From an uncultured Acidobacteriota bacterium (GTDB lineage: Bacteria > Acidobacteriota > Terriglobia > Terriglobales > Acidobacteriaceae): a DNA stretch of 32,000 nt. Where the stretch lies: contig CAVOKO010000012.1 in NCBI GenBank assembly GCA_963696525.1, positions 1,024,275 through 1,056,274 of the forward strand. The letters run 5' to 3'. Shown here one piece after another: positions 15,454 to 15,565 of the stretch; within the stretch, counting starts at the first letter, position 1, and every line of letters begins with the position of its first letter. A program made the translations under genes and the position numbers. The notes under the pieces are model-generated. The model searched no databases, had not been told where the DNA came from, and saw only the letters and a list, made by a program, of their open reading frames with translations.

Positions 15454-15494
15454 TGGGCACTCCTTGCATTCGACACGGCGAATGTGATGTCTGA

Positions 15495-15523
15495 AGAATA
15501 AACTCGACGAACATATATGTCAA
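15495..15523 (-). promoter_or_regulatory. Putative sigma70-like promoter for hgcAB
   Basis: On the minus strand TTGACA (15518-15523), 17-nt spacer, TATTCT (15495-15500), 42 bp upstream of the hgcA ATG. Confidence 0.55.
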
Positions 15524-15534
15524 CACGTATATGT
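15511..15534. promoter_or_regulatory. Candidate ArsR-family operator in divergent hgcAB / ars intergenic region
   Basis: Imperfect palindrome ACATATATGT-CAAC-ACGTATATGT, arms identical at 9/10 positions, overlapping the -35 of the hgcA-directed promoter and lying just upstream of a plus-strand TACAAT -10-like box (15539-15544). Confidence 0.5.
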
Positions 15535-15565
15535 ATGATACAATCTTGGCTTGGGGAGCTGGGAC

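Follow-up and report, generated by a model that had tools for sequence, protein, structure and literature searches.

A candidate dual-operator bidirectional promoter between hgcAB and an arsR-acr3-arsC operon in Acidobacteriota

INTRODUCTION

How the expression of hgcAB is controlled and what HgcAB does natively are questions that matter in mercury biogeochemistry. Control of hgcAB by ArsR and the co-localization of hgcAB with ars genes are both already published. In the sulfate reducer Pseudodesulfovibrio mercurii ND132, the one organism in which such control has been demonstrated, an ArsR-like regulator was shown to control hgcAB (10.1101/2022.10.17.512643). This regulator, ArsR2 (Gionfriddo et al. 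2022/2023; Goni-Urriza et al. 2020), is encoded in the same direction as hgcAB and cotranscribed with it, has no adjacent ars genes, and carries a four-cysteine site (Cys47/49/86/88). It responds to S-adenosylhomocysteine (SAH) as well as to arsenic; its DNA target was left undefined, and the paper mentions neither an operator nor a promoter nor a palindrome (10.1101/2022.10.17.512643).

McDaniel et al. (2020, Fig. 6) and Peterson et al. (2025, Fig. 4) have depicted, for metagenome-assembled genomes, neighborhoods in which hgcAB lies with acr3, arsC, arsM, or arsR, and the lake study by Peterson et al. associates arsR with a lower level of hgcA transcription (PMC11984097). The neighborhoods in those two figures are of the same type as the one described below and are given as gene content; the figures carry no cis-elements, no divergent-promoter logic, and no comparison of the slot beside arsR. 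The literature searched, coverage of which is incomplete, contained no published operator or promoter for hgcA and no description of the O1 motif reported here.

The metal sensors SmtB, CzrA, and CadC use operators of a 12-2-12 form, and multiple sites occur in divergent smtA-smtB-like regions. Operators of this type were reportedly treated by Busenlehner and colleagues in 2003. They resemble those of the present locus in being dyads of about 24 to 26 bp that are sometimes paired in a divergent regulator/target gap, but their sequences are different and the proteins sense Zn, Cd, or Pb via alpha-5 or alpha-3N sites. The classical ArsR protein is a homodimeric winged-helix repressor that is released by As(III). 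Its operators, in the R773 and chromosomal systems of E. coli and for ArsR and AseR of B. subtilis, share with the present locus the form of an imperfect AT-rich inverted repeat at or near the regulator's own promoter; in R773 the site occupies -64 to -40, upstream of the promoter and without overlapping it (PMC12607644).

Here we describe a locus from an uncultured member of the Acidobacteriota, located in a 32-kb stretch of DNA (32,000 nucleotides; here called the window) that was analyzed at its full length. As in ND132, an ArsR/SmtB regulator stands beside hgcAB, and a response to arsenic that ties mercury methylation to this element is a prediction for the window. Unlike in ND132, arsR is divergent from hgcAB and heads an operon with acr3 and arsC. 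We consider it likely, with a probability of roughly 0.7, that the 112-bp gap between the two transcripts is a bidirectional control region under ArsR with two operators, O1 and O2, through which hgcAB would be induced together with the ars operon.

RESULTS AND DISCUSSION

Organization of the locus

The gap between hgcA and arsR (15454-15565) has a GC content of about 41%, against about 58% in its surroundings. The genes on its two sides and their ribosome-binding sites are as follows.

14130-14405, minus strand: hgcB, second gene of the minus-strand transcript, encoding the ferredoxin partner of HgcA
14416-15453, minus strand: hgcA, encoding the corrinoid mercury-methylation protein, with its ATG at 15453
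15460-15465, minus strand: AAGGAG, Shine-Dalgarno sequence of hgcA, read from the sequence, 6 nt before the ATG
15554-15559, plus strand: GGGGAG, Shine-Dalgarno sequence of arsR, read from the sequence, a G-rich block conserved in the alignment of hgcA-linked loci
15566-15976, plus strand: arsR, encoding a protein of 136 amino acids with Cys34-Val-Cys36 in helix alpha-3 and with Cys112
15973-17073, plus strand: acr3, gene for an arsenite efflux permease, its start overlapping the arsR stop
17070-17480, plus strand: arsC, encoding an arsenate reductase of the low-molecular-weight-phosphatase family

The HgcA assignment is based on the NCBIfam equivalog HgcA_corrinoid (NF040863, 422.7 bits against a cut-off of 275) and on the cap-helix motif N(V/I)WCA(A/G)GK, which marks membership in the HgcA family and is present in the translation as NVWCAAGK (GVNVWCAAGKGTF). 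HgcB reached 98.2 bits with the NCBIfam model HgcB_ferredoxin, marginally below the cut-off of 99, and is also matched by Pfam Fer4 families. Acr3 scored above the cut-off of its equivalog (TIGR00832, 467.3 bits). ArsC scored above the cut-off with Pfam LMWPc (69.3 bits against 23.2); its nearest type is the thioredoxin-coupled one, for which it stayed below the equivalog cut-off (TIGR02691, 131.2 bits against 174.3). The ATG of arsR lies at 15566 rather than 15567. The start of the gene could be ambiguous: the ATG at 15590 is an alternative, and the related locus L086 has ACG at the first position.

Several public assemblies contain the same locus with identical HgcA and ArsR proteins. The contig is present in samples recorded as ENA ERZ25039481 and ERZ25039528, with runs ERR11523671, ERR11563597, and SRR16963053. 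On the minus strand, hgcB is followed by genes for an RraA-like aldolase (13315-13977) and an MFS transporter (11748-13085), and this order of hgcB, RraA-like, and MFS genes is also found in the identical contigs L001 to L003. A search for a terminator between hgcB and the RraA-like gene found none, and the sole terminator-like match nearby lies inside hgcB. At positions 2300-3480 of L001 (ENA ERZ25039481 contig_73333), acr3 and arsC are split into several short frame-shifted gene calls in an otherwise identical locus, and both genes are intact in L002. The broken calls are probably an assembly or sequencing error rather than true pseudogenes.

The ArsR protein and its family

Window ArsR contains a winged helix-turn-helix domain of the HTH_5 family (PF01022, 48.6 bits; cut-off, 22) and matches the NCBIfam model for ArsR/SmtB metalloregulators (NF033788, 89.4 bits; cut-off, 55). 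The nearest solved structures by sequence are SmtB (the closest, E=1.5e-9), Lmo1102, HlyU, CzrA, and other ArsR-family proteins; unlike SmtB, CzrA, and CadC, the protein has the ArsR-type C-V-C pair in helix alpha-3. A protein scan with one genome per species returned 80 ArsR loci, 78 of them usable, nearly all from Acidobacteriota and spanning the Terriglobales, Blastocatellia, and Thermoanaerobaculia. Cys34-Val-Cys36 is conserved in 78 to 79 of 79 homologs and in every homolog with an O1-type motif, and it presumably corresponds to the As(III) site of R773 ArsR (Cys32/Cys34). The earlier proposal of an arsenite-responsive ArsR is supported at the level of these residues. The position of Cys112 is occupied by cysteine in 72 of 79 homologs, usually as a CC pair, where the window has Ile-Cys.

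Among the 64 homologs with O1, identity in the recognition helix is 95% or higher, as would fit the reading of one operator by all of them. With three cysteines in a pattern different from that of the four in ND132 ArsR2, window ArsR lies outside the ND132-type ArsR2 subgroup, yet it is predicted to work like ArsR2.

A conserved palindrome upstream of arsR

The first candidate operator lies directly upstream of the arsR -10 element.

15511-15534: O1, candidate operator, ACATATATGT-CAAC-ACGTATATGT, a 10-4-10 inverted repeat (ACATATATGT at 15511-15520, CAAC at 15521-15524, ACGTATATGT at 15525-15534)

A palindrome at exactly these coordinates had been proposed in the first-pass annotation, and a repeat search returned the same limits. 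In the window itself the direct and inverted readings both reach 9 of 10 positions, and each unit is nearly self-complementary. The family consensus is a 24-bp 10-4-10 inverted repeat, ACATATnnGT-CAAG-GCnAATATGT. The family half-sites, ACATATTYGT and GCRAATATGT, lack self-complementarity. This makes the element an inverted repeat, and the reading as a direct repeat of two self-palindromic 10-mers 14 bp apart is ruled out.

An O1-type motif was found upstream of arsR in about 64 of the 78 usable acidobacterial loci, at a distance of 20 to 90 bp and with or without hgcA, which supports in silico the previous proposal that the palindrome is an arsR-linked candidate operator. The best motif scores were 13 to 20 of 20 upstream of arsR, compared with 8 to 12 in 290-bp control windows from the same loci, and the O1 columns are invariant in an alignment of seven hgcA-linked lineages. 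A weight matrix was built from 63 sites of other species, with the window and copies of the window left out. O1 was ranked first in the 32-kb window by this matrix, at 34.0 bits, a score to be read in light of the fact that site selection began with the window's own motif, which is partly offset by the exclusion of the window and by the background and off-target counts. The best site beyond the intergenic region scored -2.4 bits and the maximum of 20 shuffles was 13.9 bits. Across 452 kb of locus DNA, 116 of the 118 matches at 15 bits or more fell in arsR upstream regions, and the element appears to be linked exclusively to this ArsR subfamily.

Taken singly, the 10-mer shows no enrichment in the window (5 matches with two mismatches or fewer, 5.4 expected), yet the full motif is conserved and specific, which rules out a chance AT-rich palindrome. 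From the conservation, the matrix rank, and the specificity for arsR upstream regions, we conclude that the O1 palindrome is, as judged by comparative sequence analysis, a real and conserved arsR-linked element that as a two-box whole lies far beyond chance. It has the form of an ArsR/SmtB operator, an imperfect inverted repeat of about 24 to 26 bp at the regulator's own promoter. The half-site of the window family (ACATATnnG...CnnATATGT) differs from those of classical ArsR operators; the ATAT outer arms resemble those of the AseR site, TATATAACGATTTGCTTATATA (PMC12607644).

Predicted back-to-back promoters within and beside O1

The promoter scan placed a candidate promoter on each strand of the gap.

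15518-15523, minus strand: TTGACA, -35 element of hgcAB, from the promoter scan, embedded in the center of O1
15495-15500, minus strand: TATTCT, -10 element of hgcAB, from the promoter scan, with a predicted start near 15488
15536-15544, plus strand: TG-a-TACAAT, extended -10 element of arsR-acr3-arsC, from the promoter scan, with a predicted start near 15551

The hgcA promoter that had been read earlier as TTGACA-17-TATTCT, from 15523 to 15495 on the minus strand, was recovered with 10 of 12 consensus positions and is the best sigma-70-like match between 14000 and 18000. Over the 4 kb scanned there were only three promoter-like sites, two of which are those on the hgcA and arsR sides. The plus-strand TACAAT previously noted at 15539-15544 was found again, and the TG that precedes it at 15536-15537 makes it an extended -10 element. 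The arsR-side TGnTA..AT holds a fixed position in the hgcA-linked clade, and 31 of 63 loci have a TGnTAnnnT that begins no more than about 7 nt beyond O1. Measured from the predicted starts, O1 takes up about -46 to -23 on the hgcA side and about -40 to -17 on the arsR side. Unlike in the classical systems, the center of the operator would double as the -35 element of the divergent promoter.

This overlap is a feature of the family. The center of the motif reads TTGAC(A/G) on the minus strand, and TTGAC survives in 53 of the 58 loci that have a divergent ars or hgc gene, versus 0 of 6 without one (Fisher p=6e-6); in these six loci the outer arms persist despite the loss of TTGAC. Because TTGAC, unlike the arms, decays precisely in the loci that lack a divergent gene, it appears to behave as a -35 element, and a role as an ArsR contact is unlikely. 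Among the 52 loci with both TTGAC and a divergent gene, TAnnnT follows at a spacer of 17 bp in 33 and of 18 bp in 15, and at any other offset from 5 to 39 it occurs in 0 to 3 loci. The suggestion that a minus-strand -35 element lies inside the palindrome can thus be extended from the window to the family, in which it is conserved and position specific (48 of 52 loci with the -10 element at 17 to 18 bp). We read this spacer-specific TAnnnT as the signature of a conserved sigma-70-type promoter, of which TTGACA-17-TATTCT in the window is one instance. The hgcAB side has hexamers in the usual 16- to 18-bp spacing range at a conserved position, with a predicted start, an assignment to be seen against the poor experimental characterization of acidobacterial promoters.

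A second candidate operator over the predicted hgcA start

A further inverted repeat with O1-type half-sites lies between the hgcA -10 element and the hgcA ribosome-binding site.

15464-15487: O2, candidate operator, TTGCATTCGA-CACG-GCGAATGTGA, with cores CATTCG and CGAATG

The first-pass annotation had pictured control from a single operator; its O1 holds, but it had overlooked O2. The outer end of O2 shares the first two bases of the AAGGAG Shine-Dalgarno sequence, and the hgcA ATG lies 10 nt beyond O2 in the window. The family consensus is TCATATTCGC-N4-GCGAATATGT. O2 is present in about 48 of 64 loci, including L006, L010, L013, and L101, at a distance from O1 of 18 to 25 bp and sometimes 9 to 10 bp. 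A matrix made from 48 O2 sites, all from other species, gave window O2 as the top match in the 32-kb window (21.4 bits; best outside the gap, 3.1; shuffle maximum, 18.5). Window O2 is below the family norm, with 13 of 20 consensus positions and only the 6-bp cores perfect. Neither further operator copies nor a wider regulon was found in the 32-kb window, in which the next best O1 or O2 sites score below 4 bits.

In the predicted hgcA transcript, O2 corresponds to about +2 to +25. Because it lies over the predicted transcription start, two ArsR dimers probably act on hgcA. A second operator on the start of the divergent transcript would be another difference from the classical ArsR systems.

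A second architecture was observed in arsM-linked loci (among them L014, L020, L032, L052, L058, L065, and L083), in which the O1-O2 start-to-start spacing is 33 to 34 bp, the usual spacing being 42 to 49 bp. In this class the divergent -10 element (TATATT) lies within an O2 half-site.

The divergent slot and the hgcA-linked lineages

The first minus-strand gene behind O1/O2 was classified by tblastn in 64 loci; automatic picking of open reading frames had given some spurious high-GC frames, and the tblastn classification was used instead. The genes found in this slot were as follows.

34 of 64 loci: arsI/cadI-type C-As lyase gene
18 of 64 loci: arsM, arsenite methyltransferase gene
4 of 64 loci: hgcA
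1 of 64 loci: acr3
1 of 64 loci: arsC
6 of 64 loci: no divergent gene

Representatives of arsM and arsI/cadI scored above their NCBIfam cut-offs. These counts lead us to the conclusion, drawn from gene order, that hgcAB fills a slot otherwise held by arsenic genes. In the region sampled, the hgcAB-linked loci carry arsR-acr3-arsC but no arsM, and neither arsM nor arsI was found elsewhere in the 32-kb window; within the stretches covered, hgcAB and arsM seem to exclude each other around this ArsR.

hgcAB occupies the divergent slot in the window and in six related lineages. In a neighbor-joining tree the hgcA-linked ArsR proteins of the window, L006, L010, and L013, the four that come from genome assemblies, form one clade. 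Its sister clade (L007, L008, L011, and L012) has arsR-arsM-acr3-arsC or subsets thereof in one direction, with no divergent gene. Three further lineages with a divergent arsR and O1 (L086/L099, L101, and L102) came from a metagenome scan with HgcA; their O1 sites scored 20.6 to 42.0 bits. All seven hgcA-linked lineages have TTGAC(A/G) and TAnnnT at 17 to 18 bp; O2 is kept in five and lost in L086 and L102. Across these lineages, HgcA shares just 45 to 90% identity with the window protein, and the hgcAB-arsR linkage therefore appears to be old or strongly maintained.

The closest relative, L086 (2381-2519), has HgcA and ArsR proteins that are 90% and 86% identical to those of the window. It has a degraded O1 (20.6 bits), an O2 without its right half, and ACG in place of the first arsR ATG, which suggests that regulation in this lineage is relaxed or altered. 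Universality of the arrangement among related hgcA genes is unsupported, as hgcA genes at 60 to 72% identity are often found without arsR and O1. Because so many of these genes lack a nearby arsR, ArsR control appears to be optional for hgcAB.

More distant hgcA genes (44 to 52% identity; metagenome loci L108 to L165) often have a small co-directional arsR-like gene immediately upstream, as in ND132. There was no convincing O1 in the hgcA-arsR region of these loci, the best matches, of 15.1 to 15.2 bits, lying 375 to 875 bp upstream of hgcA. The arrangement resembles an independent route to the control of hgcAB by the ArsR family. Many of the L108 to L165 loci come from the Ga0123353-Ga0123357 and Ga0082212 samples.

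Two of the hgcA-linked loci, L006 and L013, have on the minus strand (at about 2680-2890 and about 2690-2890, respectively) a Cys-rich open reading frame of about 60 to 68 amino acids between O2 and hgcA. The two frames have a common C terminus, ...CCG...DMPTPxSCCGVRV*, and no counterpart was found in the window. They may encode a metal(loid)-binding peptide or be the remnant of an ars gene.

Model for the control of hgcAB and alternative explanations

The arrangement suggests a simple scheme. Two sigma-70-type promoters would fire in opposite directions from nearly one -35 position, and without inducer ArsR dimers would occupy both O1 and O2. A single dimer on O1 would cover the -35 element and spacer of both back-to-back promoters, and another, bound at O2, would occupy the start site and leader of hgcA, where it could prevent either open-complex formation or promoter escape. 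With dimers in both places, repression of hgcAB would act at two points, and arsR would control its own expression. Arsenite bound at Cys34/Cys36 (plus Cys112), or a related thiophilic species as an alternative inducer, would release ArsR and so induce arsR-acr3-arsC together with hgcAB. We infer that ArsR is the binding protein, that transcription begins at the predicted positions, and that arsenite is the inducer. The mercury methylation genes at this locus are thus probably switched on by arsenic.

A further-reaching proposal is that hgcAB has been recruited into the ArsR regulon at the arsM/arsI slot, that HgcAB serves arsenic physiology, and that mercury methylation is an arsenic-induced side reaction. 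We consider this unlikely, and the arsenic role that HgcAB might then have, such as corrinoid-dependent methylation or another transformation replacing ArsM, is similarly doubtful.

Another reading takes the palindrome as the autoregulatory operator of arsR-acr3-arsC alone, with hgcAB expressed constitutively or from a promoter independent of ArsR. This would fit with the fact that most O1 sites in the family occur without hgcA, that many related hgcA genes lack arsR, and that O2 is weak in the window and absent from L086 and L102. However, the sole good sigma-70 match on the hgcA strand of the 112-bp gap has its -35 element inside O1 and O2 on its start site. The conserved divergent promoter drives arsenic genes elsewhere, and its TTGAC and TAnnnT at 17 to 18 bp are kept in all seven hgcA-linked lineages. 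A restriction of control to the ars operon is improbable on these grounds.

It is possible, at a comparably low level of probability, that the cis-architecture is as described and that the effector is something other than inorganic arsenite: methylarsenite, Hg(II), a different thiophilic metal, or a metabolite like SAH. The family combines the alpha-3 C-V-C with a C-terminal CC, an unusual pairing of which the window has one of the two C-terminal cysteines; its commonest divergent partners, arsI and arsM, act on organoarsenicals; and the ND132 regulator ArsR2 responds to SAH in addition to arsenic. The operon itself, however, encodes an Acr3 arsenite pump and an arsenate reductase, and the alpha-3 Cys-Val-Cys is what we take to be the classical As(III) site of R773 ArsR, both of which favor arsenite.

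That the repeats are bound by another protein, or are structural AT-rich promoter DNA unrelated to ArsR, is highly improbable. The region is AT rich (41% GC against about 58%), and binding by ArsR is itself a prediction, but the motif tracks arsR over about 64 loci in several acidobacterial classes, with 2 of 118 matches elsewhere, its dyad symmetry and 24-bp length suit a winged-helix dimer, and the recognition helix is invariant along with it. The least credible explanation, in which O2 is an RNA hairpin in the hgcA 5' leader that governs translation or mRNA stability and not a DNA operator, can be dismissed: a 6-bp stem is possible in the leader immediately upstream of the Shine-Dalgarno sequence, but the fold of the leader (-7.6 kcal/mol; z=-0.07; 82 of 200 shuffles fold equally well) and an Rfam search of the gap that gave no match argue against a hairpin or riboswitch, and the half-site sequence common to O1 and O2 points to one DNA-binding protein.

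Implications for mercury methylation in Acidobacteriota

The elements that we regard as new, and as well supported by the comparisons across loci, are the defined dual-operator bidirectional promoter and the argument from the ars gene slot. The locus and its relatives offer a cis-regulatory model of hgcAB that can be tested by mutation, consisting of two candidate operators and two candidate promoters. The O1 and O2 matrices could be used to predict ArsR-controlled hgcAB from metagenomes. The names of the assemblies point to soil and peat as the sources of these acidobacterial hosts. The presence of hgcAB at what is usually a site of arsenic detoxification strengthens the link between arsenic and mercury, and it leads to the prediction that methylmercury production in these organisms would depend on arsenic.
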